Shown: piece after piece, positions 2,363-52,200 of the stretch
Layout: each line of letters starts with the position of its first letter
How positions within the stretch are numbered: position 1 is the first letter of the stretch
Assembly (NCBI GenBank): GCA_030390025.1
Contig: CM059431.1
Coordinates: forward strand, 152,274,001-152,338,000
Direction of reading: 5' to 3'
Length of the DNA: 64,000 nt
From: Squalus acanthias
Taxonomy: Eukaryota
Translations under genes and position numbers: made by a program
Notes under the pieces: model-generated
Seen by the model: only the letters and a program-made list of their open reading frames with translations
The model's database searches: none
What the model was told of the DNA's origin: nothing

Positions 2363-3955
2363 GTTACATTACTGGTAACTGACTCTACTCTAAAATTTCC
2401 GGTGGTGACCCTACTCTACGATTACTCGTAGTGTTCTTCCTCCATCATTACTGGTGGAGAACATAATCTAACATTTATGGTGATGACTTTAGTCTAACAT
2501 CACTGGTGATGATTCTGCTCTAACATTACAGGTGAAGACCCGACTCCAACATTCCTGGAGGTGACGCTACTATTCCATTACTTGTGGAGTTTATAATACT
2601 GGAGGACACCATATCCTAATATTACTGGTGGTGACCCTACTGTAACATTAATGGTGATGACCCTACACTAAATTTACTTTTGGTGAATCCAATGTAACAT
2701 TACTGGTGGCGAATCTATTCTAACATTACTGATTAGGACTTTACACTAACATTAGTTGTTGTGACCCTCCTCTACCAATACTGGTGTTTGTTCATTATAT
2801 ACCGTTACTTGTATTGACTCTACTCTAACATGACTGATTGTGATCATAATCTAACATTACTGGCGGTGACACTTACCTAATATTACTGGTGGTGAACCTA
2901 ATCTAACATTACTGGTGGTGACCCTACTCTAACCTTACTGGTTGTTACTCTACTCTAACATTACCGGTGGTGACACTATTCTAACATTACTGGTGGTGCA
3001 CTGAGTCTAACATTACTGATGATAGCACGACTCTAACATTATTAATGCTGACATTAATCCAACATTACTGGGACTGACTGAATTCTAACATTACTGGTGG
3101 TGAATCTACCCTAACATTACTGGCGGTAACTTAACTCTAACTTTATTGGTGTTGACGCTACTCTAACATTACTTGTGGTGACTCTACTGCAACATTAGTG
3201 GTGGTGTACCTACTCTAACTATACTGGTGGTGTCCCGACGCTAATATTAATGGTGGTGGCCCTACTCTAACATTATTGGGATAACGCTTCTCGAACGTTG
3301 CTGGTGAGGAGCCTCCTCTAACGTTACTGCTGTTGACTGTATTATAACATTACTGCTGGTGACCCGTCTCGATCAATATTGGACGTGCTGATACGATTTC
3401 ATAAATCTGCTACAACATTTCTGGTGAATACTCTAGTCTAACATTACTTTTGGTGAATCTACTCAAACATTACTGGTAGTCATGATGTGGAGATGCCGGT
3501 GTTGGACTGGGGTGGACAAATGTGAGTAGTCGCTCAACACCAGGTTATAGTCCAACAATATTGTTTGAAATCACAAGCTTACGGAGCACTGCTCCTTCGT
3601 CAGGTGAAATCTTCACCTGACGAAGGAGCAGCGCAACGAAAGCTTGTGATTTCAAATAAAGCTGTTGGAATATAATCTGGTGTTGTGTGACCCTCTCACA
3701 TTACTGGTAGTGACCTTCATGTAACAATACTGGTGGTGACCGGAATGTAACATTACTGGTGGTGATCCTACTCTAACGTTACTGATGGTGACTCTACTAT
3801 AACAATATTGTGGAGTCCCTGCACTATCATTACTGGTGATGACCCTACTGCAACCTTAATGTTGGTGACTCTACTCTATCATTACTGGTGGTGACCGTCC
3901 TCTAACATTATTGGTGGCAACTCTACTCTAACGTTACTGCGGATGACACGAAAAT
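2363..3955 (+). repeat. 26-bp satellite array, interrupted by a hairpin element at 3481-3698
   Basis: Same unit as 1-573. Confidence 0.95.
3481..3698 (-). mobile_element. Non-autonomous Penelope-derived hairpin (inverted pLTR) element with two degenerate hammerhead motifs
   Basis: ~90-bp inverted arms centred on caggtgaa-atc-ttcacctg; matches the pLTR at 34306-34433; 13-bp TSD CATTACTGGTAGT (3468-3480 / 3699-3711). Confidence 0.85.
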
Positions 3956-4717
3956 GGCCCGAAAATTAGACCTAATACGCGAGAGTACGCACTGTGTACT
4001 CTCGAGTGTTCGTTCCAGAATTGCCGGTTTCCTGCATGCACTGCGCATGCGCGGGAAACCGGAACTTCGTGTATTGCAAAGGGGGTGGTTACTCAGTCAA
4101 CCGCGTGCACGCTACAGGCTGCAGGCACTCAGTGCACTAAGTTTTTTTTCAGGTTTGAACGCGCAGGTAAGTGGTGAAGATTTTACACATAAAGAAAGGA
4201 GGCGTAGGACCCCCTTTTAACAAGGTAAGCAGTTAATTAAGTGTTATTTAATTTTTTTTTTAGCAGGTTTATCTTTTTTAGAGACTTTAAAGAAAGGTAA
4301 GTTTATTTTTATAACTTTTAAAAAGAGTTAAAATTTTTTCAAAAATTTAATTTTTTGTTTAAAGTGGTTAATTTATTTAACTATAGTTATTGTATTAATG
4401 TGATGGCTTTTCTTAATTTAATTGAGGTTTAGCTGTTCTTTTGGGGGCTTGTAGTATTCATAGCTTTGACAGCCCTTGCTGTCAAAACTATGAATGAAAG
4501 ATGGTGTGCTGCCATTGGCTCTAACTGAATCACGTGATCCCAGAGCTCGCACGAACAAATTGCGCCTTCTGGGACACGCAAGCACTGCACGCCGGCAACA
4601 AGGAGAGGCCCTGAAACTGCAGTTCGTGTTGGCCCGAAACAAAAAGGTAGGCGCGGAGTGCGATATCGCAGGGAATCCTTAACCCCGCAACAACCATCGA
4701 TGTTTAATTTCTGGGCC
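3956..4717 (+). mobile_element. PIF/Harbinger-type non-autonomous DNA transposon (MITE), 762 bp
   Basis: TIRs GGCCCGAAAATTA...TAATTTCTGGGCC; 3-bp TSD AAT (3953-3955 / 4718-4720); empty paralogous site near 42135; second copy at 19206-19966. Confidence 0.9.
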
Positions 4718-4935
4718 AATATCATTTCTGATGATGACCGTGTTCCAATCTTACTGGTGGAGAGCTTTCTCTAGTTTTATTTTATGTGATTCTACTGTAA
4801 TGCTTTTTCTGGAGATAATACTTCTCTAACATTACTGGGGGTGACCGTATTCTAATAATATGTGTGGTGACTTTACGCTGCATCTACGTCTGGTGATCGC
4901 GTTCCACCATTATTGATGGTGATTTTGCTATCACA
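4718..4935 (+). repeat. Degenerate end of the 26-bp satellite
   Basis: ctctaacattactgggggtgacc-like units. Confidence 0.7.
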
Positions 4936-6164
4936 TTAATTTTGCCAGGGCTTGAGGTTTGACTGGGCTTACTTCTATTAATATTTCTATGTTTCTAATC
5001 TATCGCATCATCCCGCAGCTCAGAGTTTACCCATCTATAAATATGCTAGCTCTTTTCTGACATCTTTGAACAGCCTAACGTTACCTGTATTAAAGCTTTA
5101 TGTTTTAATCAACTTGAGTTCTGCCATATTTTCAGAATGAATTCCGTTTCCGCAGTTATCTTTAAAAAAATGTTCCATATCGTCCTCTGGTGCGGCTTGA
5201 TTCTCACTTCCACCATCAATTGTATTATAAACCCAAGGAGAATATTATATATATAAACCATGCCTTCATCTTCCTCAATCATATCGGCACCATCACTGCC
5301 CAGCAATCATATCCGTTCTCTCACGGTATGTGGAGCGAAACTTCCACATTCGATGGGGTTGTAAAAGTGGCGGTAGAGGATCGTCCGCCCATTACACACC
5401 ACGCCCGATTTTACATCGTGATTTCTCCAAAGCCATTTTCTGATCCGTCTGCAGTTGAAAAGTATAAAATCCACTCACTGGGGATAATTCTAGCTTTAGG
5501 CGATTATGTAAAATTGCCGAAATAGAAATGGTCACCTATATTACGCCCCGCCCAATTTTTCCACTTCACTGAATTGTAAGCGAAGGAAAATCGACCTTGG
5601 TGTATAACGAGCGGCCAATTCTATATCATTCATGTTGACCACCGCTTACATTTAAAATCACCCCACTCATTCAATCAAACTTTAGAACAACAGCAGTGAT
5701 GCCAATGACGATTGCAGGTGAAACAATTCTCCATTAATTACTCTTAACGCTCCATTGCCTTGCACACCTTTACCAAGTGCTTCATTGCTACCAAATTGAT
5801 ACAATTCCCTGCATGGATTGAGCGTTTTTTTGATTCTCAGGGTTTGGTTTTTAGATCGATATTGATTAGAAATAAACTATTCACTGTTTCTTGTATAATC
5901 AAAATTTCAGTTTTGAAATACAACATGATTAATTATATTAAATTAAAACACTACCGTTTACTGATGGCGTGCATTGTCAGCTTGGCAGTTTAAGAAAATT
6001 CATTCACTAGCTAATTTGCCTAGTATTTATAATGGATTTGTAATAAAATTGCAAAACCTCGTGACTAGCAATAGGAACACAAAATTAAAAAAATGCTGCT
6101 GTTATAAATCTGAAGCAAAACCAGAAAATGTTGCAAGCATTCATCATCTGTGGATAAAACAGAC

Positions 6165-11424: not shown

Positions 11425-12320
11425 TATATTAATGACCTTCTCTTGAGTGGACAGGGCATCATATTAGCGTTTGCAAATGCCACAAAAATTGGAAATGTAA
11501 TAAATAGTGAGGAGGATAGTAACAGACTTCAGGAGGACACTGGCCGGTGAAATGGGCAGACACATGGCAGATGGAATTTAATGCAGAAAAGTGTTAAGTG
11601 ATTCATTTTGGATGGAAGAACGAGAAGAGGCAATATAAACTAAATGGTACAATTTAAATGGGGTGCAGGAACAGAAAGGTGGACGTACACACATCTTTGA
11701 AGCTGGCAGGACAAGTCGATACAGCTGTTAAAAAAGCAAACGGGAATCATTGGCTTTATAAATCGAGGCATAGATAACAAAAGTTAGAAAGTTATGGTAA
11801 ACCTTGATAAACACTGGTTAGGTCTCAACTGGAGTTTTGTGTCAAGTTTTGGGTACCACACTTTAGGAAGGATGTCAAGGTATTAGAGAGGGTACAGGAA
11901 AGATTTAGTGGAATGGTGCGAGAGATGAAGGACTTTAGTTGTACTGCAGAAGCTGGGGTTGTTCTTCTCAAAAGAGAGAAGGTTAAGGGCAGGTTTTAAA
12001 GAGCTGTTCAAAATAATGCGGCGTTTTGACAGATTAAATAAGGAGAAACTGTTACCATTGGCAGGATGGATCGGTAAGCAGAGGACACAGCTTTAAGTGA
12101 ATTGGCATAAGCACCAGAGGGGGAGAAGAGTAGACTTTTTTTATGCAGCGAGTTGATGTGATCTGGAATGCACTTCCTGAAAGGGCGGTGAAAGCAGATT
12201 CAATTATAATCTTCAAAAGGGAATTAGATATATAGTTCAAAGGGGGAAAAGTGCAGGGCTATGTGGAAAGAGCTCCCGAGGAGTCGGATTCATTGGACAG
12301 TTCTTTTCAAGTGCCGGCAC
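11425..12320 (+). mobile_element. Older CR1 3' fragment
   Basis: Degenerate RT C-terminus and 3' UTR; paralog at 38690-39575 (-). Confidence 0.8.
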
Positions 12321-13708
12321 AAATACAATCCAGCCAATTACGGCCTCATCAGTAAACTCTCAATCAGCAGTAAAGTGATGGAATTTGTCATCTATAGTGC
12401 AATCAAGCAACACTTAGTCGCCAATAACCTGCTCACTGATGCTCAGTTTGGGTTCTGCCAGGACCACTCTGCTCGAGACGTCATTTGAGCCTTGGTCCAA
12501 ACATCGACAAAGGAGCTGAATTCCAGAGGTGATGTGAGAGTGACTGCCCTTGACATCAAGGCAGCATTTGTCCGAAAGTGGCATCAAGGAGACATAGTAA
12601 AATTGAAGTCAATGGGAAGCGGGAAGGGGGAAACTCTCCACTGGCTGGAGTCATACTTAGCACAAAGAGAGATGGTTGTGGTGGTTTGGGTTCAATCATC
12701 ACAGCCCCTGGACATCGCTGTAGAAGATCCTCAGGGAAGGGTCTTGGTTCAGCCATCTTCAGCTGCTTCATCAATGACCTGCCCTCAATCATAAGGTCAG
12801 AAGTGCGGCTGTTCGCTGGTGACTGCAGAGAGTTCAGTGCCATTCGCAACTCCTCATAAAATGAAGCAGTCCATGCCCGCATGCAGCAAAATCTTGACGG
12901 CATTTAGGATTGGGCTGATAAAAGGCAGGTAACATTCGCGCCACACAAGTGCCAGGCAATGACCATCTCCAACAAGCGAGCATCTAAAAACCGGCCCTTG
13001 GCATTCAACGGCATTACCATCGCTGAATTACCCACCATCAATATCCTGAGGGTCACCAATCACCAGAAACCTAACTGGACCAAACAACATAAATACTTTC
13101 GCAACAAGAGCAGGTCAGAGGCTGTGTATTCTACGTCGAGTGTATGACCCACCAAAGTATTTCAACAATCTACAAGGCACAAGTCAAGAGTGTTATGGAA
13201 TACTTTCCACTTGTCTGGATTAGTGCAGCTTCAACACACTCAAGAAGCTCGACACCATACAAGTCAATGTAGCCCGCTTACTTGGCACTCCCTCCAACAC
13301 CGTAATTCATTCCCTCCACCATCGGAGTACCGTGGCTGTCGTGTGTACCATCTGTAAGATACACTGCAGCAACTCGCCAAGGCTTCTTCGGCAGCACCCC
13401 CCAAACCCATGAACTCTAACAACTAGAAGGACAAGAGCAGCAGACGCATCGGAACACCATCACCTCCAGGTTCCCCTTCAGGTCACACAACATTCTGACT
13501 TGGGAATATATCGCCGTTCCTTCTTCATCACTGGGTCAAAATCCTGGAACTTCCTCCCAATGAGCACTATGGGAGTACCTTCAGCACGCGGACTGCAGAG
13601 GTTCCAAAAAGCGTTTCAACACCTTCTCAACGGCAAATAAGGATGGGCAATAAATGCGGGCCTCGCCAGTGACGCCCGTATCCCATGAAGGAATATTTTT
13701 TTTTTTTA
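12319..13708 (+). mobile_element. CR1-group (Zenon-like) LINE fragment, duplicate of 585-1981
   Basis: QFGF, LDIKAAF, WHQG, LFAGD motifs; same 3' junction with the satellite as at 585. Confidence 0.85.
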
Positions 13709-13711
13709 GCA

Positions 13712-16110
13712 TCAATTCACCACCAGTAATTTTAGATTAGGGTCATCAACAGTGATGTTAGAGTAGAGTCACCACCAGTAATGTTAGAATTGTGTTCCCC
13801 CAGTAATGCTAGAGTAGACTCACCACCAGTAATGTTAGAGTAGAGTCACCACCAATAATGTTGAGGTAGACTCCGTATCATTAATGTTAGTGTAGAGTCA
13901 CCACCAGTAATGTTAGAGTAGAAGCATCATCAGTCAAGTTAAAGTAGCGTCACCACCCATAAGGCTGGAGTAGAGTCATCGCCAGTAAGCTTAGCGTATT
14001 GTCCCCACCAGTTAAGTTGGACTAGAATCATCTCCAGAGCTGTGTCACAACCACTAATGTTGGAATATGTTATCCACCATTAAAGTTAGAGTAGGGTCAT
14101 TACCAGTGATGTTAGAGTCGTGTCACCACCCGTAATGATATGATAGAGTCCTCATCAGTAATGTTAGAGTGGAGTCACCGGCAGTGATTTTAAGTAGGGT
14201 TCTCAAAATACTTTTAGAGTAGAAGCACCACCAGAATTGTTCGTGTATATTCAAAACCAGTAATGTTAGAGGAGAGTCACCACCTGTAATGTTAGATTAC
14301 GATCACCACAAGTTTTGTAAAAGTCGGTTCACCACCAGTAATGTTCGAGTATAGTCACCACTAGTAAATTAGAGTAAGGTCACCTCCAGCAACGTTGGAA
14401 TAGAAGCACCACCAGTATTTTTAGAGTAGTGTTATCACCAATAATGCTTGAGTCGAGTCATCATCAGTAATGTTAGTTTAGGGAGACCAACAGTAATGTT
14501 AGAGTACGGTCACCAACAGTAATGTTAGAGTGGGGGCACCACCAGTTATGTTAAAGTAGGGTCACCAACAGTAATGTTAGAGTAGGGTCACCACCAGTTA
14601 TGTTAGAGTAGGGTCACCACCAGTTATGTTAGATTAGGGTCACCACCAGTAAAAATAAAGTAGAAGTACCACCAGTCATGTTAAAGTAGGGTGACCACCA
14701 GTAGTGCTAGAGTCGTGTCATCGCCAATAAGGTTAGCGTATTGTCTCCACCAGTTAAGTTAACTAGACTCACCAACAGAGCAGTGTCACAACCAGTAATA
14801 TTAGAATATGGTCTCCACAATGAAAGTCACAGTACGGTCATAACCAGTAATTTACGGGGGTCGGGTTATCACCGGCAATGCTAGTATAGAGTCCTCATCA
14901 GTAATGTTAGAGTGGAGTCACCAGCAGTGGTGTTAAGTAAGGTCCTCACCAGTAATGATAGTGTAGAAGCACCTCCAGTATTCTTGGGGTAGATTCAACA
15001 CCAGTAATGTTAGTGGAGAGTCACCACCAGTACTGTTAGATTATGATCACCAACAGTAATGTTAGAGTCGGGTCAGCACCACTAACGTCAGAGTAGTGTC
15101 ATCACCAATAATGTTTGAGTAGGGTCATCATCAGTAATGTTAGAGTAGGGACACCAACAGAAATGTCAGATTAGGGTCACCACTAGTAATGTTAGAGTAG
15201 AGTCACCAGCAGTACTGTTAGAGTTGTGACAATACCAGTGATGCTACAGCAGAGTCACCACTAGTAATGTTAGAGAAGAGCAACGACCAGTAACGTTAGA
15301 GTAGAAGTAATGTTAATGAAGGGTCATCACCAGTAATGCTAGAGTAGCGTCACCTCCAGTCATGTTAGTTTATGATTACCACCAGTAATGTCAGAGTAGA
15401 GTCAGCAGCAGTAATGTTAGTTTATGATCACCATCAGTAAGGCCAGAATAGTGTCATCAGCAATACTGTCAGAGTAGAGTGACCAACAGTAATGTCAAAC
15501 TAGGGTCACCAACAGAAATGTTACAGTAGAGTCACTACCAGTAAGGATAGAGTAGAGTCACCACCAGTAATGACACAGTAGCGTCATCACCAGTAACGTA
15601 AAAACAGAGTCACCACCAGTAATTTTAGAGTAGGGTCACCACCAGTAAGGTTAGAGTAGGGTCATCACCAGTATTTTAGAGAAGAGTCACCACTGGTAAT
15701 GATAGAGTAGAGTCACCACCAGTAATTTTAGAGTAGAGTCAAAACCAGCAATGTTAGAGTAGGGGCAGCAGCAGTAATATAAGAGCAGAATCACCACCAG
15801 TAACGTGAGAATAGAGTCACCACCAGAAATGTTAGGGTAGTCTCACAAACAGTAATGATACAGTACAGTCAGCAACACTAATGTTAGAGTAGGTTCATAT
15901 TCAGTAATTTTCGAGCAGAGTGACAACCAATAATGTTAGAGTAGACTGAACACCAGTAAGGTTAGCGTAAAGTCACCACCAGTAATCTTAAAGTAGGGTC
16001 ACCACCAGTAAGGTTAGAGTAGAGTCACCACCACTAAATGTAGAGTCGGGTCATCACCATTAAGGTTACAGTTGCGTCAACAACAGTAAGGTTAGAGAAG
16101 GGTCACCTCC
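13712..16110 (-). repeat. 26-bp satellite array (~2.4 kb) directly upstream of GPCR copy 1
   Basis: (AGAGTCACCACCAGTAATGTTAGAGT)n on the + strand. Confidence 0.95.
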
Positions 16111-16392
16111 ATTTTTCATCATGGTGCAAAGCTAAATTTAACTGTCCAATGGATGAGTTAAGATTTCACGAATTATTACGCGGGAGCATTAACCGAACGC
16201 AGTACCCGTGGTGGGCAGTTCCCTTCGGGGATCACGGTGCTGGTGCCCAGTACAATCCATCTGCTGTGAGTTCCCGTTCATTCATTTGAATTGATTGGGT
16301 ATCATGAACTGAGTTCAAAAATGTCCCCTTTGTTGTCCCAGGCACACTGAAGTGGAAAATCTTGCCTTGTTGGTTAAGTGACTGTAACTAAC

Positions 16393-16593: not shown

Positions 16594-17462
16594 TTAAGTC
16601 AGTGAATGCTGTTGTCTGATGGCTGCAGACTATCTCAGTGTTAATGATTATGTAATGATTCCCAGAATGTCCTCATTGCAGGGTCACTTATCCATCGGGA
16701 TAAGTTGGCGAATGTCAGTGGCAATCCAACCAGTCCACGCGGCTGGTGAGGCTGGTCGGTAGATCGTTGGTGCCGGGCGCTCGCCTTTCTTTCCTGTACT
16801 GAGGGAGGGTGAAGCTGACATTCCCCGGCTCCTCCAACAATATAGAGATCAGTACAGGATGTGTTTCTTCCAGTGGATAGTAATCACATCAGTTTTACAA
16901 TTGTACCCTGTTTATTTTACGTTGATAATTGCTCGAACTGCAGTAACCTCCACCCAACAGGGTACTTTGAAAGATACTTTGGCAACAGTTGCCTCTCAGG
17001 GAGCTGCTCCACTCCTCTCGGCTGCAAAGAACCTTACCCTCTCCACCAGCTCCCGCTCTGTTACCGAGCAGCTCCCAGTCCCACCCATCCCCACCCCCCG
17101 ACTCCCTTCCCCCACCCCACTCCAGGGAGATTGTACATAGAAAATGCGCAGAGTTTCAACCTAAATTCAATGATGTTCTCGCAACTGTATGCTTCGTTTG
17201 AATTCATATCTTTGCAGTAACTGCTGCGAAATTATATTTAATATTTGACGATGGCTGTCTGAAGTCTGCAGGGAAGTGCGGCGGATTTTCAGTCCCTCTA
17301 TATTGAGTGTTCAATGTTTATTTTTAAACGTTTTTCGTTAACGATCGCCTATATAATTAAAAATCCGCCTGCACAGGGACACATCTGCACATTTCCCCAC
17401 AATAAGGTGTGAGATTTATCCGAGTGTGGCCGTTACTGACCGCTTGTCCCTCTTTCTTACAG

Positions 17463-18364
17463 CGAACCTACTGACAATCGTGATTCTGTCCGGAGGAAAA
17501 TGCGGTCTTTCCATAGGTATCTCGGTCTATATGGTGGCCATGGCAATAGCAGATCTACTGGTCATGATCATCAATGTACTGCTGCACCGCGTTTTTACAT
17601 ATCACTTTCCTCATTCATTCTTCGGCTACATTGCCGTCTGTAGGTTACTTATATACTTGAATGCTGCTGTCCTCGATATGTCCGTGTGGTTTACCGTCAG
17701 CTTCACATTTGACCGCTATGTCGCGATAAGTTGTGAGAAGTTTAAATCGAAATATTGCACAGTGAGAACTGCGGCCGCCGTAATAACAACGGTCTCTGTT
17801 CTGCTCTGGTTGGACAATATTCCCTATTCGTTCGCATATGAAACTGCAGGAATCATTGATAATATTCACTGGGGTTGCCGCTTGAAAATGGACTTCTTCA
17901 CCTCCCCTGCAGGTACAGCATTTGTCTGGTTAGAAACTCTTTTAACTGCAGGGCTTCCTTTTGCTTTGATATTACTGTTTAATGGTTTGACAGTCAGACG
18001 GATTTTAGTGGCCAGTAGAGCCCGCAGAAGACTCCGGGGTCACAGCAGTGAGAGTCAGAGCGATCCAGAGATGGCGAGCCGGAGGAAATCCATCATTTTA
18101 CTGTTCAGTGTATCGAGCAGTTTTATATTGTTGTGGCTGACAGCTGTCGGTAGTTATTTGATGAACTCCCTGGTCATTTATGAACGACCCGATTATACAT
18201 CTGCTGCATACATCGCCTCTACAAGCGGATTTATGCTCATGTATTTGAGCTCCTGTACAAACAGGTGCATTTATGCAGCGACCCAAACCAAATTCAGGGA
18301 AGAGATGGTGAGATTAGTGAAATCTCCCTGGACATTGATTCGGAACTTGGTTAACAAAATATGA
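17463..18364 (+). CDS. GPR139/GPR142-like class A orphan GPCR copy 1, exon 2 (323 aa spliced); possibly a pseudogene
   Basis: Branch point TACTGAC, pyrimidine tract and CAG acceptor at 17462; ADLL, FTFDRY, ECL2 WGC, LPF, NxCIY motifs; 7TM hydrophobic pattern; ORF uninterrupted. Confidence 0.9.
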
Positions 18365-18539: not shown

Positions 18540-21160
18540 GGTGTACATTATCGTTTCTAACCTATCCAAGCCGTCATAATCTTGTACACCACTATCAAAT
18601 CACCCCTCAACCTCCTTTTCACTAATAAAAACAAATCCTGCTTCTCCAACCTGTCCTTCTAGATAAGATCCCCATTTCCCGGAACCATTCTGGTGCATTG
18701 TCAAACACCTGCTGAACATCTATGTCGACAACATCCAATGTATTCCCTTCATCAATCCTCTCTGTTACTACATTAAATAATTCCATTAGATTCGTCAAAC
18801 ACGATCAGCCTTTTACAAATCCGTGTTGGCTCTCCTTAATTAGCTTAAACCTCTCCAAGTGCCTGTTATTTTTTCCTTGATTACTTGTTTCTAAACTTTA
18901 CCCACCACTGATGTTAAACTGACCGGCCTGTAGTTACTAGGATTGTCCTTACACACTTTCTTGAACAATGGTGTCACATTTGCCACTCACCAAACTTCAG
19001 GCACATCCTCCACATCAGGGAAAACTGGGAAATGAAGGTAAGCCTTACCGCTATCTCCTCCCGCAATTCCCTTATCAACCTGGGATGCAAACCTTCTGGA
19101 CCAGGTGTCTTTTCCACTATAAATATACGCAGCCTTTCTTGTACATTCTGTTGATCAATTCGCACTTATTCCATTGCTTACAACTTTACCACTTCTACCG
19201 ATATTGGCCCAGAAATTAAACATCGATGGTTGCATCGGTGGTAAGGAGCCCCCGCGATATCGCACTCCGCGCCTGCCTTTATGGTTTTGGCCCACACGAA
19301 CTTCAATTCGAGGGCCTCTCCCTGGTGCCGGTGCGCAGTGTGTGCGTGTCCCAGAGGCGCAATTTGTTCCGGCGACCTCTGGGATCACGTGGGCCAGTTA
19401 GAGCCAATGGCAGCACACCATCTTTCATTCATAGTTTTGACAGGAGAACTGTCAAAGCTATGAATACAACAAGCCCCCAAAAAAACAGCTAAACCTCAAT
19501 TAAATTTAAAAAAGGCGGCACATTAATAAAATAACTATAGTTAAATAAATTAACCTCTTTAAACAAAAAATTTAATTTTTGAAAAAAATTAAATTCTTTT
19601 TAAAAGTTATAAAAATAAACTTACCTTTCTTTAAAGTCTCTAAAAAAGATAAACCTGTTGACATTTATTTTAAATAACACTTAATTAACTACATAACTTG
19701 TTAAAAGGGGGTCTGACGCCTGCTTTCTTCATGTGTAAAATATCCAACACTCAGCTGCGTGTTCAAACCTGAAAAAAAAACTGAGTGCACTGCGTGCGCG
19801 CAACCTGTAGTGCGCACGCGGTTCACTTAGGAACCGCCCCCCTCGCCATACACGAAGTGAAGGTTCCCCGCGCATGCGCAGTGCATGCAGGAAACCGGCA
19901 CTTTGGGACCTAATACGCGAGAGTACACACTGCGTACTCACCCGCATTAGGTCTAATTTACGGGCCATTGCGTCAACAGCCACCTCTTTAGTAAACACCG
20001 ATACAAAGTAATCACTGATATACTAGCCTTGTCCAGCGCCTCTAAGCATATATCGCCTTCTTTGTCTCTAATAGACCCGACCCCGCCTCTTCCTACCACT
20101 TACTCTTTACAAGCCAATCGAAGATTTTTGGGGTCCCTTTTATGTTACCCGCCATTCTATTCTCATGTTCTCTCTTTGCCAATCTTATTTTCATCTTCAC
20201 TTCCACTCTCAACTAATTGTATTTGTTCTCCTTCCTCCTTGAATAATTCACCTGATATGCATCATAAAACCTCTTTTTCTGTTTCATCATCTTCTCTATC
20301 TCCCTCGTCATCCAAGGAGCCCTTGCTTTTCTTCCCTTACGCTTCCCTCTTGTTGGAATGTACCCAGCCTGTACTTGGAACAAATCCTCCTTTAAGATAA
20401 CCCGTTGTTCCCGTAAAGTTTTTCCTGTCAGCCTTACACTGGTCAGAACTTTTCGCATCCCATTGAAGTTAGCCCTAATCCAGTTTAGAAGTTCCACCCT
20501 AGATTGTTCCTTGCTCCATTCCATTGCTAATCGAAACCTTATGATATAATAATCACTCGGACCCAAGTCTTCTCCCACAGACACTAGGTCCACCTGGCCC
20601 ACCTCATTCCCAGCGTCAGATCCTCCCTAGTTGAGCCAAAAACATACTGGTCAAGGAAAATCTCCTGAACACATTTCAGAAATTCCTCCCCCACGTTTCC
20701 CTTTACCCTAGCATCATCCCAATCGATATGTGTGTCATTAAAGTCGTCCAATATGACCACACTACAGCTCTTGCATATCTCTGCGATATACGGGCAGATT
20801 TGCTGCTCTACCTCCCTCTCTCTATTTGGAGGCCTGTAGAATACCCCCAATAGCTTGATCATACCCTTGTTGCTCCTCAATTCTAACAGAATGGATTATG
20901 TCCTTGTCGCCTCAAGAACATACTCCTTTTCCACCACTACAATGTCTTCTTAGCCAGCACTGCCACCACACCTCCATTTTTTCTTTCCCTGTCTTTTCTG
21001 AACAACGTGTACCCTTGAATGTCAAGTGTCCTGTCCTCGCCGTTTTTAAGCCACGTTTCCATTATTGCCACAACATCATCTTGCCACACGACTAATTCTG
21101 CTTATTGCTCACCAACCTTATTCATCACACCTTCTGCGTTTACGTACATGCATTCTAAAA
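18540..21160 (-). mobile_element. Decayed CR1 LINE ORF2, interrupted by a MITE
   Basis: GVFYRPP, PGPEGLHPRL, KAPWMT-like motifs; paralog at 45750-47580. Confidence 0.85.
19206..19966 (-). mobile_element. PIF/Harbinger-type MITE, second copy (761 bp)
   Basis: TIRs GGCCCAGAAATTA...TAATTTACGGGCC; TSD ATT (19203-19205 / 19967-19969); empty site at 46372-46374. Confidence 0.92.
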
Positions 21161-34305: not shown

Positions 34306-35219
34306 AATGACGTGGAGATGCCGGCGTTGGACAGGGGTGGACAAAAATGAGAAGTCGCACAACACCAGGTTATTGTCCAACAGATTTATTTAATTTTACA
34401 AGCTTTCGGAGCTGTTCGCTCCTTCTTCAGGTAGCATAGCTGTGAGAGAATCTCCCAGAATTCACAATATAAACACAGAAAAAATCTATTGAAATCTTTC
34501 CCTACATCAAAGACACACTAAGAGCACAGCCAAGACAATGAGATGTGTCCCAGGGGGTCCAACGTGTCAAAACACCTGCTGGCTGCATATCCTCTCCATT
34601 TGTGTTAGTCTTTTTAAAACAAAACCTGGAAAGACCGGCCATGATGTCAAGTCACGTTCTGTATCGTGACATGAACCCGATATCGCGATTGAGGCCATCC
34701 TCATGAGTGCGGAACTTGGCTATCAGTTTCTGCTCTATGATTTTGCGCTGTCGTGTATCCCGAAGGCCGCCTTGGAGAACGCTTACCCGCAGATCCGAGG
34801 CTGAATGCCCCTGACTGCTGAAGTGTTCCCCGACTGGGAGGCAACCCTCCTGCCTGGCGATTGTTGCGCGGTGTCCGTTCATACGTTGTCTCAGTGTCTG
34901 CATGGTCTCGCCGATGTACCATGCTCTGGAGCATCCTTTACTGCAACGTATCAGGTAGACAACGTTGGCCGAGTCACATGAGTATGTACCATGTACCTGG
35001 TGGGTAGTGTCCTCACGTGTGATGATGGTATCTGTGTCCATGATTTGGCATGTCTTGCAGAGGTTGCCGTGGCAGGGTTGTGTGTTGTCGTGGTTGCTGT
35101 TCTCCTGAAAGATGGGTATTCTGCTGCGAACGATGGTACTTTTGACCTTAGGCGGCTGCTTCAAGGCGAGTAGTGGAGGCGTGGGGATGGACTTAGCAAG
35201 GTGTTCGTCGTCATCGATG
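34306..35219 (-). mobile_element. Penelope-like retroelement, 5'-truncated (GIY-YIG endonuclease + pLTR)
   Basis: ORF 35227-34652 with NVVYLIRC..C..WYIGET..LRQRMNGHR..GLNRD; pLTR carries a hammerhead motif and an AATAAA-like signal. Confidence 0.92.
34397..34433 (-). ncRNA. Minimal type I hammerhead ribozyme in the Penelope pLTR
   Basis: Minus strand: tac-CUGAAGA-A-GGAGC-gaaca-GCUCC-GAAA-GC-UU-gta; core intact, stem II paired, palindromic AAGCUU helix III, stem I tac/gta. Confidence 0.75.
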
Positions 35220-40720: not shown

Positions 40721-41943
40721 TCTGTTTTATCCACAGATGATGAATGTTTGCAGCATTTTCTGGTTTTGCTTCAGATTTATGACAGCAGCATTTTTTTTCT
40801 TTTTTTTACTTAATGCAATTCACGAGGTTTGCAATTTTATTAGAAACCCATTATAAACACTAGGCAAATTATCTAATGAATGAATGTTCTGATACTGCCA
40901 AGCAGACAATGCACACCATCTCGAAACGGAGGTGTTTTACTTTAATATAATGAATCATGTTGTATTTCAAAACTGATAATTTGATTATACAAGAAACACT
41001 GATTAGTTTCTTTCTAAGACTTATCGATCTAAAAACCAGTCCCCTAAAATCGAAAAAACGCTCAATCCATGCAGGGTATTGAGTCAATTTGGCAGCAATG
41101 AAGCAGTTGGTAAATCTGCGCAAGGTAATGAAGTAATAAGATTAATATATGGAAAATCGATTCATCTGCCATAGTCATTGGCATCACTGCTCTTGATATA
41201 AAGTTTGATATAAATAGTGGGGTGATTTTAACTTTAAGCGTTGGTCAACATGAACGATACCGAATTGGCAGGTCGATTTTCCTTCGCTTTGAATTCAGTG
41301 GAGTGGAAAAATTGGGCGGGGCGTAATTTAGGCGAACAATTCTATGCCGGCCATTTTACATAATCGCCTAAAGCTAGAATTATCCCCAGTGAGGGGTGTT
41401 TATACTTTTCAACAGCGGAAGGATCAGAAAATTGCTTTGGACGATCACAATGTAAAATCGGGCGCGGTGTTTAATGGGCGGACGATCCTCTACGGCCAAT
41501 TTTACAACCCCATCTAATAGGAACTTTCGCTCCAAATACCGTGAGAGAACGGATAGGATTTCTGGGCAGTGACGGTGCCGATATGATTGAGGAAGCTGAA
41601 GGCATTGTTTATATATATAATATTTTCCTTGGATTTATAATACAAATGATGGTTGAAGTGATAATCAAGCTGTACCAGAGGACGATATGGAACATTTTTT
41701 TAAGATATCTGCGGAAACGGAATTCATTCTGAAAATATGGCATAACTCATGTTGATAAAGACATAAAGCTTTAATACAGGTAACGTTAGGCTGTTCAAAG
41801 ATGTCAGAAAAGAGCTAGCATATTTATAGATGGGTAAACTTTGAGCTGAGGCATGATGCGATAGATTAGAAATATAGAAATATTAATAGAAGTAAGCCCA
41901 GTCAAACCTCGAGCCTTGGCAAAAGTAATGTGATAACAAAATC

Positions 41944-43300
41944 GTCACCAATAATGGTGGAGCGCGATCACCAGGACGTAGATGCAGCGTGCAGTCACCA
42001 CACATATTAATAGAATACGGGAACACCCAGAGAAGGATTATCTCCAGAAAAACATTACTGAAGAGTCACATAAAATAAAACTAGATAAAGCACTCCACCA
42101 GTAACGTTGGAACACGGTCATTATCAGAAATGATATTGTAGTGCCATCCACAGTAACGTTGGAGCAGATTCGCCACCAATAATGTTAGAGGATGGTCACC
42201 ACCAGTAGTCGCACAACACCAGGTTATAGTACAACAGTTTTTTTTTTAAATCACAAGCTTTCGGAGCGTTGCTCCTTCATCAGACTTCACCTGACGAAGG
42301 AGCAGCGCTCCGAAAGATTATGATTTCAAATAAAACTGTTGGAATATAACCTGGTGTTGTGCGACTTCTCACATTTGTCCACATCATGACCACCAGTAGT
42401 GATAGAGTAGAGTCACCACCATTAATGTTGGAGAAGGGTCATCACCAGTAATGATAGTGTAGGGACACCGCAGTATTGTAATGTAGGGTCACCACCAGTA
42501 AATTTAGATTCGGTTCACCAACAGTAATGTGAGAGCTATGTCACAAACAGTAATATTGTAGTTGGATCATCACAATTAATCTTAGAGTAGAGACATCACC
42601 AGTTATGTTCGACTAGGGTATTCACCAGTAATGTTAGAGCAAAGTCACCAGAAGTAATGTTATTGTAGATTCGTCACAAGTAGTGTTAGAGTATTGTCAA
42701 CATCAGTAATGTTATAGTCGGGTCACCACCATTAATGTTAGATAGAGTCACCAGGATTAATGTTAGAGTAGAGTCATCACCAGTAATGTTAGAGTACAGT
42801 CATCTCCATTAATGTTAGAGTAGAGTGATCACTAGTAATGTTAGATTAGAGTCATCACCAGTAATGTTAATGTAGGGTCAACACCAGCACGGATAGAGTA
42901 GAGTCACCACCACTTAGTTTGGAGCAGGGTCGCCACCAGTAATGTTAGAGTACAGTCAACACCAGTAATGTTAAAGTAGGGTCACCACCAGTAATGTTAA
43001 TGTAGGGTCAACACCAGCACGGATAGAGTAGAGTCACCACCACTTAGTTTAGAGCAGGGTCGCCAACAGTAATGTTAGAGCACAGTCACCACCAGTAATG
43101 TTAAAGTAGGGTCACCACCAGTAAGGTTAGAGTAGAGTCACCACCACCAAGTTTAGAGTAGGGTCACCACCAGTAATGTTAAAGTAGTTTCAACACCAGT
43201 AAGGTTTGAGTAGAGTCACCACCACTAAGTTTAGAGTAGGGTCACCACCAGTGAGATTACAGTTGCGTCACCACCAGTAAGGTTAGAATAGGGTCAACTC
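41944..43300 (-). repeat. 26-bp satellite array upstream of GPCR copy 2
   Basis: Same unit; the border with unique sequence matches that at 16110. Confidence 0.95.
42210..42388 (+). mobile_element. Penelope-derived hairpin element, second insertion
   Basis: Inverted arms around catcag-ac-ttcacctg; 12-bp TSD ACCACCAGTAGT (42198-42209 / 42389-42400). Confidence 0.85.
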
Positions 43301-43572
43301 CATTATTCATCATGGTGCAAAGCTACATTTAACTCTCTAATGGATGAGTTTAGATTTCAAAAAGAAGCAGTCACCGAACGCAGTGCCCGTGTGGGCAGTT
43401 CCCTTCGGGGATCACGGTTCTTGTGCCCAGTACATTCGTTCTGCTTTGAGTTCCTGTTCAATTATTTGAATTGATGGAGTTTCATGAACGGATTTGTAAA
43501 ATGTACAATTTGGTATCCCAGGAACACTGAAGTGGAAAATCTTGACTTGTTGGTTAAGTGACTGTAACTAAC

Positions 43573-43773: not shown

Positions 43774-44669
43774 TTAAGACAATGAATCCTGTTGTCTAAT
43801 GGCTGTTGACTATCTCAGTGTTAATGATTATGTAATGATTCCCAGAATGTCCTCATTGTAGATTCACTTATTCATCGGGATAAGTTGGTGAATTTCAGTG
43901 GGAATCGAACCAGTCCACGCGGCTGGTGAGGCTGGTCGGTAGCTCGTGTGTGCCGGAAGCTCGCCTTTCCTCACTTTACTGATGGAGGGCGAAGCTGACT
44001 ATCCCCGGCCCTTCCAACAATATAGAGATCAGTACAGGCTGTGTTGCTTCCTGTGGATAGTAATAACATCAGCTGTCCCCTTGTACCCTGCTTATTTTTC
44101 GTTGATAATTGCTCGAACTGCAGCCACCTCCACCAAACAGAGGACTTTGAAAGATAATTTGAGCAACAGTTGCCGCTCAGGGAGCTGCTCCAATCCCCTC
44201 GGCTGCAAAGAACCTTCGCGTCTAAACCAGCTCCTGCTCTGTTACCGAGCAGTTCCCAGTCCCCACCGCCGCCCACCGCGCACCCCCCCCCCCCCCGCCC
44301 GCCCCCGAGTCCCGTCCTCCACCCCACTCCAGGGCGATTGTACAGAGAAAAAGCGCAGAGTTTCGACCTAAATTCAATGATGTTCTCTCAACGATATGTT
44401 TCGTTTGAATTCATATCTTTGTAGTAATTTCTGGGAAATTATATTTAATATATGACGATGGCTGTCTGAAGTCTGCAGGGAAAGGCGGCGCAATTTCAGT
44501 CCCTCTATATTGAGTGTTCAATGTTTATTTTTAAAATATTTTCGTTAACGATCGCCTATATAATTAAAAATCCGCCTGCACAGGGACACATCTGAACTTT
44601 TCCCCACAATATGGTGTGAGATTTATCCGATTGTGCCCGTTACTGACCGCTTGTCCCTCTTTCTTACAG

Positions 44670-45598
44670 CGAACCTACTGACAATCGTGATTCTCTCCGG
44701 AGGAAACTGCGGTCTTTCCAAAGGTATCTCGGTCTACCTGGTGGCCATGGCAACAGCAGATCTACTGGTCATGATCATCAATGTGCTGCTGTACCGCGTT
44801 TTTACATGTCACTTTCCACATTCATTCCTCAACTTCACTGCCGTCGGTAGGTTGCTTATATACTTGAATGCTGCTGTCTTCGATATGTCCGTGTGGTTTA
44901 CCGTCACCTTCACATTCGACCGCTATGTCGCGATAAGTTGTGAGCAGTTTAAAATGAAATATTGCACAGTCAGAACTGCGGCCGCCGTCTTAACAACGGT
45001 CTTTGTTCTGCTCTGTTTAGACAATATCCCCTATTCGTTTGCATATGAAACTGAACGAATAATTAACAATATTCACTGGGGTTGCCGCTTGAAAATGGGC
45101 TTTTTTACCACGTCTGCTGGTACAGCATTCATCTGGTTAGAACGTTTTTTAATTGCATGGCTTCCTTTCGCTTTGATATTACTGTTTAATTTTTTGACAG
45201 TCAGACGTATTTTAGTGGCCAGTAGAGCCCGCAGGCGACTCCGGGGACACAGCAGTGAGATTCTGAGCGACCCAGAGATGGCGAACAGGAGGAAATCCAT
45301 CATTTTACTGTTCAGTGTAACGGGCAGTTTCATAGTGTTGTGGCTGACATCTATCGTTAGTTATTTAATTAACTCGCTGGCCATTTATGACCGAATCGAT
45401 TATACAGCTCCTGCATACATGGCTTCTGCAACCGGATTTATGCTCATGTATTTGAGCTCCTGTACTAACACGTGCATTTATGCAGCGACCCAAACCAAAT
45501 TCAGGGAAGAGCTGGTGAGATTAGTGAAATCTCCTTGGTCCTTGATTCGGAACTTGGTTAACGAAATAGGAAGATCAAACCCGAGCTTCCTATCCTAA
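44670..45598 (+). CDS. GPR139/GPR142-like class A orphan GPCR copy 2, exon 2 (332 aa spliced); possibly a pseudogene
   Basis: TACTGAC branch point and CAG acceptor at 44669; DRY, WGC, NTCIY; ~83% aa identity to copy 1 by manual count, no indels. Confidence 0.9.
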
Positions 45599-49257: not shown

Positions 49258-52200
49258 AATAGTTAGGGGAGCAATCAGGCGTTTCTGCGGCCACATACGT
49301 GACTCCAGAATGGTATGTTGCCTCCCTGGTTCCAGGGTCAACGATGTCACTGAACGGCTGCAGGACATTCTGAGGGGGGAGGGTGAACAGCCAGAGGTCG
49401 TGGTCCATATCGATACCAACGACATAGGTAGGAAGAGGGAAGAGGTCCTGCAGGCAGATTTTAGGGAGCTAGGAAAAAGGTTAAAAACCAGGACCTCAGA
49501 GTCAGTAATCTCCGGATTCCTACCAGTGCCACGTGCTGGTGAGAACAGAAATAGGAAGATAGCGCAGATGAATGCCTGGCTGGAGAGTTGTTGTAGGACG
49601 GAGCGCTTTGGATTCCTGCGGAATTGGAACCGTTTCTGGGGAAGTTGAGACCCCGACATGCCAGACGGGTTGCACCTCAACGGGAACGGGACCAATATCC
49701 TCACGAGACGTTATGCTAGTGCTGATGAGAGTGTTTAAACTAGCTTGGCAGGGTGATGGGTGTCTAAGTATAGATTCAATAAGGAGGGAAGAAAAACTGG
49801 AATTGGAAAACAAAAACATAGAAAGTAAATTGGAAGGGCAGAGGAATCAAGGGTTAGACAGTAGTCAACAAGGAGGTTTGCCTCTACTAAATGGTATATA
49901 TTTAAATGCAAGGAGTATCGCGAAAAACGAAGATGAGCTGAGGGTACAGGTAGATACTTGGGACTATGATATTATAGCTATTACTGAGAAGTGGCTAAAA
50001 TAGGTGCAGGTATGGCAGCTCAACATTCTTGGTTACATGATTTTCAGACTGGAGAGAGAGCGAGGCGAAAAGGGAGGGGGGTTCGTGATTGATTAAAGAA
50101 ACTGTTACAGCTGTGAGGAGGGAAATTATGTTGGAGGGATCATCAAACGAGGCCATATGGGTCGAATTGAAAAACAAAAAATGGGCGAACACACTGCTGG
50201 GAGTGTACTGTAGACCCCAAAAAAGTGAGAGGGAAATAGAAGAACAAATATGTGGACAAATGTCTGAGAAGTGCAAAATTATAGGGCAGTACTAGTAGGG
50301 ATTTCAATTACCACAATATTAACTGGGATAAAATTAGTGTGAGGGGTATAGAGGAATTCCTAAAATGCATCCAGGAGAACTTTTTAGTCAATATGTAGCA
50401 AGCCCAACAATGGTGGGATCGGTTCTGGAATTAGTTTTAGGGAATAAAGAAGGCGTATCAGTGGGGGAGCATTTTGGTGCTAGTGACCATAATTCTGTTA
50501 GGTTTAAGGTACTTCTGGAAAAAAGGACAAGGATAGACCAGGAATAAAAATACTAAACAGGAGAACAGCAAATTATGCTAAACTCACAGGGGATTTAGCC
50601 ATTGTGGACTGGAAACAGCTACTTGAAGGAAAATCAGTGTCAGAGCACTGGGAGGCATTCAAGGAGGAGATCCGGGGGAGTAAGACCAAATATGTGCCGT
50701 TAAAGAAAAAAGATGGGACTAACAAAGCTTGAGCCCCCTGGATGTCTAGTGACATACTCGGTAGGATAAAGAAAAAAAGGAAGGCGTATGGCAGATACCG
50801 AGGGCTAAGTACTACATAATCTTTAGAGGAGTACAGAAAGTGCAGGGGTTCAATTAAAAAGGATACTGGGAAAGCAAAGACAGAGCATGAAAAATTCTAG
50901 GCTGGTAAAATCAAGGAAAACCCAAACATGTTGTATAAATATATTAAGAACAAGAGGATAACTAAAGAAAGGGTTGGGCTTATTGGAGATCATGAGTGTA
51001 ATCTGCATGCGGAGGCGGGAGACGTCGGTCGGGTTCTTACTGATTACTTTGCGTCTGTTTTCCCAAAGGAGAGGGGCGAAGCAGACATTGGTATCAGGAG
51101 GGAGGAGTGTGAAATATTAGATGAAATAAACATAGTGAGAGAGGAGGTATTAAGGGGTTTAGCAGCTTTAAAAATGGATAAATCCCCAAGCCCGGGAGAA
51201 TGTACCCCAGGCTGTTAAGCGAAGCAAAAGAGGAAATAGCAGATGCTCTGACAATCATTTTTCAATCCTCTCTGGCTTCAGGTGTGGTGCTGGAGGACCG
51301 GAGTACAGATAAAGCGGTACCCTTGTTTAAAAAAGGAGAAAAGGATAGAACCAGTAATTACAGGCCAGTCAGCGTAACCACGGTGGTGGGAAAATTATTG
51401 TATAGAATTCTGAAGGACAGTATAAATCTTCATTTAGAAAAACACGGATTAATCAAGGATAGTCAGCACGGATTTGTTAAGGGAAGGGCGTGTCTGACAA
51501 GCTTGATTGAATTTTTTGAGGAGAAAACAAGGAGGGTAGATGAGGGTAGTGCCTTTATATTGAATTTAGCAAGGCTTTTGATAAGTTTCCACATGGCAGA
51601 CAGGTAACCAAGTTAAAAACCCATGGGATCCAGGGCAAAGTGTTAAGTTGGATTCAAAATTGGCTCGGAGACATGAAGCAGAGGGTAATGATTGATGGGT
51701 GTTTTTGTGACTGGAAGGCTGTTTCTAGTGGGGTTCCACAGGGCTCAGTACTAGGTTCCTTGCTTTTTGTGGTGTATGTCAATGATCTACACTTGAATAT
51801 AAGGGGTATGATTAAGAAGTTTGCAGATGATACTAAAATCGCCTGTGTTGTTGCTACTGAAGAAGAAAGCTGTAGACTGCAGGAGGATATCAATATGTTG
51901 GTCAGGTGGCCAGGTCACTGGCAAATGGAATTCAATCCGGAGAAGTGTGAGGTTATCCATTTGGGGAGGGCTAACAAGGAAAGGGATTACACATTGAATG
52001 GTAGGACACTGAGTAGTGTAGAGGAACAAAGGGATCTTGGAGTGCAGGTCCACAGATCCCTGAAGTTAGCAGACCAGGTAGATAATATGTTTAAGAAGGC
52101 AAATGCAATGCTTCCCATTATTAGCCGTGGCACAGAATACAAGAGCAGGGGGGTTATGCTTCAAATGTATAAAACGCCAGTTCGGCCTCAGCGAGAGTAC

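Follow-up and report, generated by a model that had tools for sequence, protein, structure and literature searches.

Two Penelope-like fold-back insertions at the same base of a 26-bp satellite in Squalus acanthias: likely independent events, with a possible role for mimicry of the element's ORF start

Within a stretch of 64,000 nucleotides of the Squalus acanthias genome (GCA_030390025.1, contig CM059431.1, positions 152,274,001 to 152,338,000; hereafter the window), two fold-back fragments of a Penelope-like element (PLE), here called A and C, lie in separate arrays of a 26-bp satellite, in the same orientation and at the same unit position, 17 (Table 1). The account that explains the whole best, which we hold at somewhat better than even confidence, is that of two separate target-primed insertions by a family that is not aimed at the satellite, with the common phase arising from the satellite's imitation of the element's ORF start and from pairing. 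A and C would then represent the 3' end (pLTR and tail, next to a copy in inverse orientation) of a shark Penelope-like retrotransposon present in great abundance, both inserted at about the time of the GPCR cassette duplication.

The window is a tandem cluster of cassettes that are about 10-14% diverged from each other, and the diverged 26-bp repeat forms one array per cassette, with 222 units in total. In two cassettes a rhodopsin-family receptor frame (7tm_1), one per cassette, adjoins the satellite array; these paralogous frames (17357-18364 and 44564-45598) measure 335 and 344 aa from stop to stop. LINE-like DNA (579-2363; 12319-13709) splits the array at the same unit in the cassette of 1-578 and in cassette B but not in C, and the satellite arrays thus gather several unrelated insertions. 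A 770-bp element with terminal inverted repeats, which looks like a non-autonomous DNA transposon, is present as two copies that are 87% alike: that at 3954-4718 in array A is missing from array C, and that at 19200-19969 is missing at the corresponding place of cassette C. Additionally, array A holds a 39-nt non-satellite insertion (about 3366-3405) that array C does not have, and the distal part of array C (43260-42870) contains a young five-unit higher-order repeat, in which units 13-15 and 18-20 are nearly identical.

Table 1. Positions of the satellite arrays, PLE copies, target copies and candidate motifs in the window
Feature	Position	Strand	Description
Satellite array, cassette A	2364..4955	+	26-bp repeat; continues from 1-578 across LINE; interrupted by fragment A and by the 770-bp element at about 3954-4718
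Target copy, tail side of A	3467..3480	.	14 bp apparent; the 7 nt adjoining the element read as Thr-Thr codons + A after the tail ATG
Fold-back PLE end fragment A	3481..3697	-	Tail ~3481-3514, direct pLTR arm, centre near 3610, inverted arm
ATG closing tail of A	3481..3483	-	Frame HRHLHIM identical to shark PLE protein P0049
Minimal hammerhead core (CUGANGA, stem II, GAAA)	3617..3641	+	Inverted arm of A
Second target copy of A	3698..3711	.	First 5 nt also fit the inverted arm
Empty homologue of the C-bearing unit, array A	3876..3901	+	2 differences, 2 shared variants
Satellite array, cassette B	13710..16122	-	26-bp repeat, 94 units, without PLE insertion
Copy E	34306..35219	-	5'-truncated PLE: C-terminal GIY-YIG part of ORF only, full tail; ORF stop 34652-34654, C-x4-C-x2-C linker, hammerhead core at 34430
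Satellite array, cassette C	41934..43313	-	26-bp repeat
Target copy, inverted-arm side of C	42198..42209	.	12 bp; last 3 nt also fit the arm
Fold-back PLE end fragment C	42210..42388	+	Inverted arm, centre near 42284-42290, direct arm, tail, ATG at 42386-42388
Hammerhead cores, fragment C	42291 and 42283	+ and -	
Target copy, tail side of C	42389..42400	.	12 bp; Thr-Thr-Ser after ATG

Three PLE copies were found in the window (A, C and a third, termed E), in addition to one weak 23-nt match at 50250-50272. The two satellite hairpins reported by the initial annotation are both real, with A ending at 3697 and not at 3698. The hairpin of A (3481-3697) folds at -113.2 kcal/mol (z -15.8), a stability reached by 0 of 200 shuffled sequences. 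From its tail at one end, each fragment runs through a direct arm and a centre into an inverted arm that is shorter; the two are 84-85% identical, three of their four arm ends agree to within about 1 nt, and the tail of C has a 25-nt deletion between short direct repeats. Their hairpin centres, which had been described as different, lie on the same axis, a 6-nt gap being the sole difference. In both fragments, as in EN+ PLEs, a 5'-truncated inverted copy lies alongside and the tail is confined to one end; their pLTR contains a minimal hammerhead motif, the core of which was recovered by a regular expression in three of the four arms and in E. The copy in the direct arm of A has an altered GAAA and was missed by this motif scan. 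Rfam at the gathering threshold returned no hits over the whole window. No head-to-tail tandem of the hairpin unit occurs in the window, and a pattern scan for further hairpin copies in viral contigs and metagenome contigs gave no matches. In the features tested, A and C are ordinary end insertions of EN+ PLEs.

Copy E, which is 82.5% identical to fragment A over 126 bp, links the fragments to a coding family. Its 177 aa show up to 86% identity to shark proteins, including P0001 with RVT_1, and its protein relatives come mostly from sharks; GIY-YIG clusters, with PF01541 on 23-27% of members, are among its atlas hits at 0.96, and a Pfam scan of the E ORF alone returned no family, two hits below threshold on other proteins being set aside as chance. 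The parent family, comprising E and its relatives, thus has an ORF with RT together with a C-terminal GIY-YIG endonuclease, of which E holds the EN part only. The assignment of the hairpins to Penelope elements with a GIY-YIG endonuclease is borne out: A and C are PLE ends, and E encodes a PLE GIY-YIG domain. The further proposal that an element like E mobilizes them in trans fails for E itself, which is without an RT domain and could not mobilize anything. The C-x4-C-x2-C in the E frame fits the CX2-5CxxC linker upstream of GIY-YIG, a motif of the Neptune clade that, in the available part of one survey, is common to Nematis and Naiad as well (PMC8557442); the E linker is thus probably of the Neptune/Nematis type, and the GIY-YIG core of E has two internal cysteines. 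E lies at an AT-rich spot in a LINE with no TSD seen; by comparison with one diverged LINE paralogue, a few target bases seem missing and not duplicated.

The common orientation and insertion point of A and C had been noted before, and both do lie at unit position 17. The reported distance of 7 units between the two sites likewise holds: the flanks of C match array A in 144 of 172 bases at unit +7, whereas the same-site register gives 100 of 172 and the 19 other offsets examined give 40-108 of 172, and free array-to-array alignment scores 1684 vs 1460.5 when the sites are forced together, a cost of 223 points. Both insertions are flanked by short TSDs, given earlier as 13 and 12 bp; the 12 bp of C is retained and A has an apparent 14 bp. 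Of these, 5 nt (A) and 3 nt (C) could equally be assigned to the inverted arm, leaving a 9-bp core that is identical in both, so that the exact TSD lengths are ambiguous owing to homology at both junctions. Each site was also said to be empty in the other array. This is clear for the C site, the homologous unit of which is uninterrupted in array A (Table 1), whereas the A site is empty in array C by position only: the five units around A differ from the colinear C units at 7, 11, 10, 6 and 5 positions, values near the background mean of 8.6 between units, and share one variant overall. This five-unit tract (3438-3798 vs 42483-42611) is colinear but not homologous, with well-matched anchors on both sides, which suggests a conversion or replacement event.

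In the absence of any preference, at least two of three copies would fall in satellite with a probability of 0.023, which multiplied by 1/52 for phase and strand gives 4.4e-4, a value without correction for the large number of windows scanned. That base and orientation coincide is thus likely to have a cause.

The evidence makes it likely that A and C are two independent insertions. Both target copies of A carry a variant present in 9 of the 222 units, 3 nt from the junction, and the C copies carry the common base. Furthermore, A and C are separated by three gaps of at least 6 nt (25, 6 and about 10 nt), with C the shorter at each; the aligned flanks contain 6 indels of this size in 5185 bases, which yields a Poisson P of 0.002 for the three gaps. 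These two lines of evidence, target letters belonging to each element's own unit and the gaps, together with the match of the flanks of C to the empty unit +7 of array A on both sides, make two insertions, as originally claimed, likelier than one. The alternative, that a single insertion made shortly before the duplication was moved by 7 units through out-of-register gene conversion or unequal exchange and that C later lost three pieces, appears unlikely. It would be in line with the common hairpin axis, with arm ages about equal to or above the cassette split (the A arms seem slightly older than the split, P 0.06), with the position of A in a five-unit tract seemingly replaced in one lineage, and with two shared letters: a rare position-24 variant (8 of 222 units) in the target units of A and C, and a G>T, absent from the listed family variants of at least 5%, in the inverted arm of A and the direct arm of C. 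However, because the letters in both target copies of each element are those of its own unit, the points of exchange would have to lie no more than about 2 nt from the junction; three deletions in 218 bp would be needed as well; arrays A, B, C and 1-578 yielded no donor for the five-unit tract; and at least one variant is shared by 9995 of 24531 random unit pairs.

The arms themselves do not separate one origin from two. Differences amount to 13/76 within A, 8/76 within C and 8-12/76 between them, with flanks diverged by 10.8-13.6%, and these arm distances, like the arm phylogeny, fit either history. In alignment A2, no private change common to like arms of A and C was seen by inspection. A scheme in which one flipped hairpin with two arm types was the source of both fragments was dropped, the letter at 3527 on which it leaned being nearly private to A (the family letter there is A at about 99% of depth). 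One remaining arm change common to A and C is within what parallel mutation gives.

Whether the satellite is a target of the whole family was addressed with read contigs of four of 11 listed sequencing runs (X2, X5, X7 and X11), aligned at 80% likeness to 3451-3612, that is, to 30 bp of satellite flank, the tail and one arm, and hence to one phase of one flank. With 7886, 3582, 1081 and 73 contigs aligned over these 162 bp, the family is very abundant. Relatives in the reads run on past the hairpin centre (loose ends behind 3608) or turn elsewhere (behind 3586-3608), so that the turn point varies within the family. As many relatives extend beyond the centre, A and C may be truncated copies of an autonomous element and need not form a non-autonomous family. 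Loose ends behind 3586-3587 in runs X2 and X11 reveal relatives with other hairpin centres, one of them a perfect palindrome in the hammerhead core region.

Family-wide targeting of the satellite, the central claim of the initial annotation, is not supported by these reads. Summed depth in the satellite flank (3457-3462) relative to the tail end (3481-3486) was 0.60% (9028/1,509,476), 0.015% (95/641,059), 0.46% (487/105,781) and 0.10% (3.8/3781) in the four runs, where contig depth is not copy number and run X5 was covered to about 55%. Thus, for at least 99.4% of the tail-end depth in each run, the sequence does not run on into the satellite flank. The listed contigs with loose ends there numbered 124, 172, 28 and 5, and their consensus agreement was 0.36-0.46 in all nine listed groups of at least 9 contigs, the flanks being mixed and mostly AT-rich, unlike the satellite; two tiny X11 groups of 2 and 3 contigs had agreements of 0.93 and 0.6. 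Low flank depth and heterogeneous loose ends together indicate that the family is not satellite-specific: most copies do not lie in one repeated target at one base, and E is also outside the satellite. The flat flank depth of 0.5-0.6% in X2 and X7 is ambiguous as to source and may stem from satellite-only contigs or from true junctions. A non-autonomous PLE family or subfamily that targets the 26-bp satellite at one base is accordingly very unlikely. Two of the three copies in the window are in satellite at one phase, at the chance level given above, and the flat X2 and X7 depth could represent many junctions; against this stand the tail-end depth and the heterogeneity of the listed flanks, the lack of subfamily marks common to A and C beyond one common allele at 3521, and the absence of PLE copies from array B (94 units) and the array part 1-578 (22 units). 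A local enrichment at a single satellite phase, as predicted by the account of two separate insertions favored here, may be compatible with the read data.

The DNA next to the tail points to a reason for the common phase. The ATG at which the tail ends is probably the start codon of the ORF, as the frame HRHLHIM is identical in fragment A and in shark PLE protein P0049. Among the shark PLE proteins found via a full-length relative of E, P0049 reads ...HRHLHIMTTID and P0050 starts MTTIN; read in frame from tail into flank, A gives HRHLHIMTTS and C gives HIMTTS. Thus, the satellite DNA beside the tail ATG probably imitates the next codons of the ORF. The motif ACNACNA, and also the looser RCNACNA, occurs at one of the 52 strand-phases of the consensus unit, which is the phase used twice, and 70 of 79 ACNACNA sites in the actual arrays are at this phase. 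The density of such sites is 0.0068 in satellite and 0.00065 elsewhere (10x), the satellite holding 51% of those in the window, and if a match to ACNACNA were required, two insertions would share a phase with a probability of 0.79. A match at the used phase has a chance of about 1 in 52, given that the proteins played no part in defining the same-phase finding. These values also bear on pure coincidence, i.e., two random insertions of a family dense enough to leave three copies in 64 kb, which we regard as the least probable of the readings considered: the very high abundance of the family and the number of windows scanned speak for it, but it demands the place and phase (4.4e-4) and then the 1 in 52 for a phase that is the ORF-start mimic.

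The reads lend some support to pairing. In runs X2 and X5, which are from the same species, the consensus of the loose ends before 3481 has AATAGC as its last six letters (overall agreement 0.37-0.38), and 23 of the 172 listed tail-end contigs of X5 align on to 3477, four bases into the flank. This consensus suggests a GCT (Ala) codon after the ATG in part of the family, which counts against pairing, as its fit is poorer; the GCT version forms 3 of 6 Watson-Crick pairs with A and 2 of 6 with C, the rest being G-U/G-T wobble, under a scoring chosen post hoc. A wobble-permissive six-letter pairing score, which places 79 of 123 satellite sites at position 17, was given little weight, having been chosen after the data were seen. 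Copy E, with its AT-rich end site without an ACNACNA-type match, falls into a different and apparently commoner class.

A mechanism can be proposed on this basis. The RNA of the element would continue beyond the tail into the ORF start (ATG, followed by Thr-Thr-Ile or Ala codons), and the satellite would imitate this continuation at exactly one strand and phase, leading to the same base and the same orientation. The endonuclease would nick the satellite after unit position 17, and the freed 3' end would pair over ~7 nt with the RNA immediately beyond the ATG, priming reverse transcription at that codon. Synthesis would proceed through the tail and pLTR to just beyond the hammerhead, where the observed anatomy ends; the inverted arm could form by fold-back or by second priming on the other strand, a known pattern, and would be joined to the other target end via the 3-5 nt of microhomology seen at the junctions, to give the observed 9-bp core duplication, ambiguous in length. 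We infer three parts of this scheme, namely the independence of the events, the continuation of the RNA in this species and pairing as the cause; the case for pairing comes from two junctions, the Thr-Thr codons being taken from the proteins of two further sharks. In LINEs, L1 among them (PMC3649969), and in telomeric EN-minus PLEs, priming is guided by short 3' pairing. In the accessible text on PLEs in general, the pLTR and tail overlap the ORF start (PMC3846280), and the RT of PAc, a Poseidon element of Anolis, starts inside the RNA, which implies a template running past the tail, with no primer-template homology in vitro (PMC11167929).

Two independent insertions could also share a phase through a DNA preference of the endonuclease, such as for an ATT motif or for DNA resembling the tail-ORF junction of the element itself, without pairing between primer and RNA. 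We consider this rather unlikely. ATT motifs on both strands are cut by the Poseidon protein, which needs no homology to start RT (PMC11167929), the unit has an ATT just left of the 9-bp core duplication, and mimicry of the element's own junction at the DNA level would give the same M-T-T reading. Yet the tail-side junction is in G-rich DNA, as opposed to the AT-rich flanks typical of the family, the C unit reads ACT and not ATT, and the match to the ORF start would not be expected from a preference for ATT alone.

Returning to pairing, two junctions that continue in frame as the first codons of the ORF suggest short primer-template pairing, and this bears on an open point in PLE biology, i.e., the way in which the target primer engages a template RNA extending beyond the point where RT begins. 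The general form of the proposal, that an EN+ shark PLE primes part of its insertions by pairing with RNA past the tail and is thereby enriched at a single satellite base, is put forward only tentatively. If true, it would provide EN+ PLEs with a homology-guided route, contrary to the sole in vitro study, in which the RNA template could steer the site; it would refine the PLE mechanism and account for recurrent hits at one phase of a repeat with no need for dedicated targeting. Should the flank depth of X2 and X7 also reflect true junctions, there would be many such insertions. In a literature search covering mainly open-access papers, no report was found of an EN+ PLE primed by an ORF-start match or aimed at a minisatellite.

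Among known systems, the closest are the complex insertions of EN+ PLEs, which the available portions of the sources describe as having a pLTR, an inverted 5'-truncated copy, a 30-40 bp tail and an 8-10 bp TSD (PMC3846280; PMC8557442). Compared with these descriptions (Arkhipova et al., 2013; Craig et al., 2021), A and C have the same head-to-head inverted arms with the inverted arm shorter, a tail of ~34 nt at one end only, a 9-bp core duplication, microhomology at the 5' junction and an internal deletion bounded by microhomology; they differ in being without the ORF body, with ~130 nt of end plus inverted copy, and in that both junctions match the ORF start. PLEs of the Neptune/Nematis type, as far as the same partial source describes them, combine the CX2-5CxxC linker before GIY-YIG with an insertion bias to microsatellites (PMC8557442); E resembles them in its C-x4-C-x2-C before GIY-YIG and in relatives that carry RT and EN, whereas the repeat here is a 26-bp minisatellite holding a tiny share of copies. 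Like PAc (Frangieh et al., 2024; PMC11167929), the present family has a hammerhead in its pLTR, and E and most flanks are in AT-rich DNA, into which PAc also inserts; PAc starts RT without homology to the cut DNA, whereas A and C suggest a primer-template match of ~7 nt.

The hammerheads of A and C resemble the minimal PLE hammerheads, in the accessible part of their description, in the CUGANGA and GAAA boxes and in a palindromic AGCU for helix III (Cervera and de la Pena, 2014; PMC4209133). A and C also have no coding capacity, like non-LTR retrozymes; retrozymes, however, are monomers or head-to-tail tandem repeats in the portion of the preprint available (bioRxiv 10.64898/2026.07.22.740005), whereas A and C each form one inverted pair bearing a tail. 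Finally, A and C occupy one fixed base of a repeated target, as do two repeat-specific retroelements, PLE-X in spike-moss 28S rDNA (PMC8557442) and SART1Bm in telomeric repeats (PMC7265360); in the available parts of these sources, those families insert at a precise repeated target, whereas here at most 0.6% of tail-end depth has a satellite flank.
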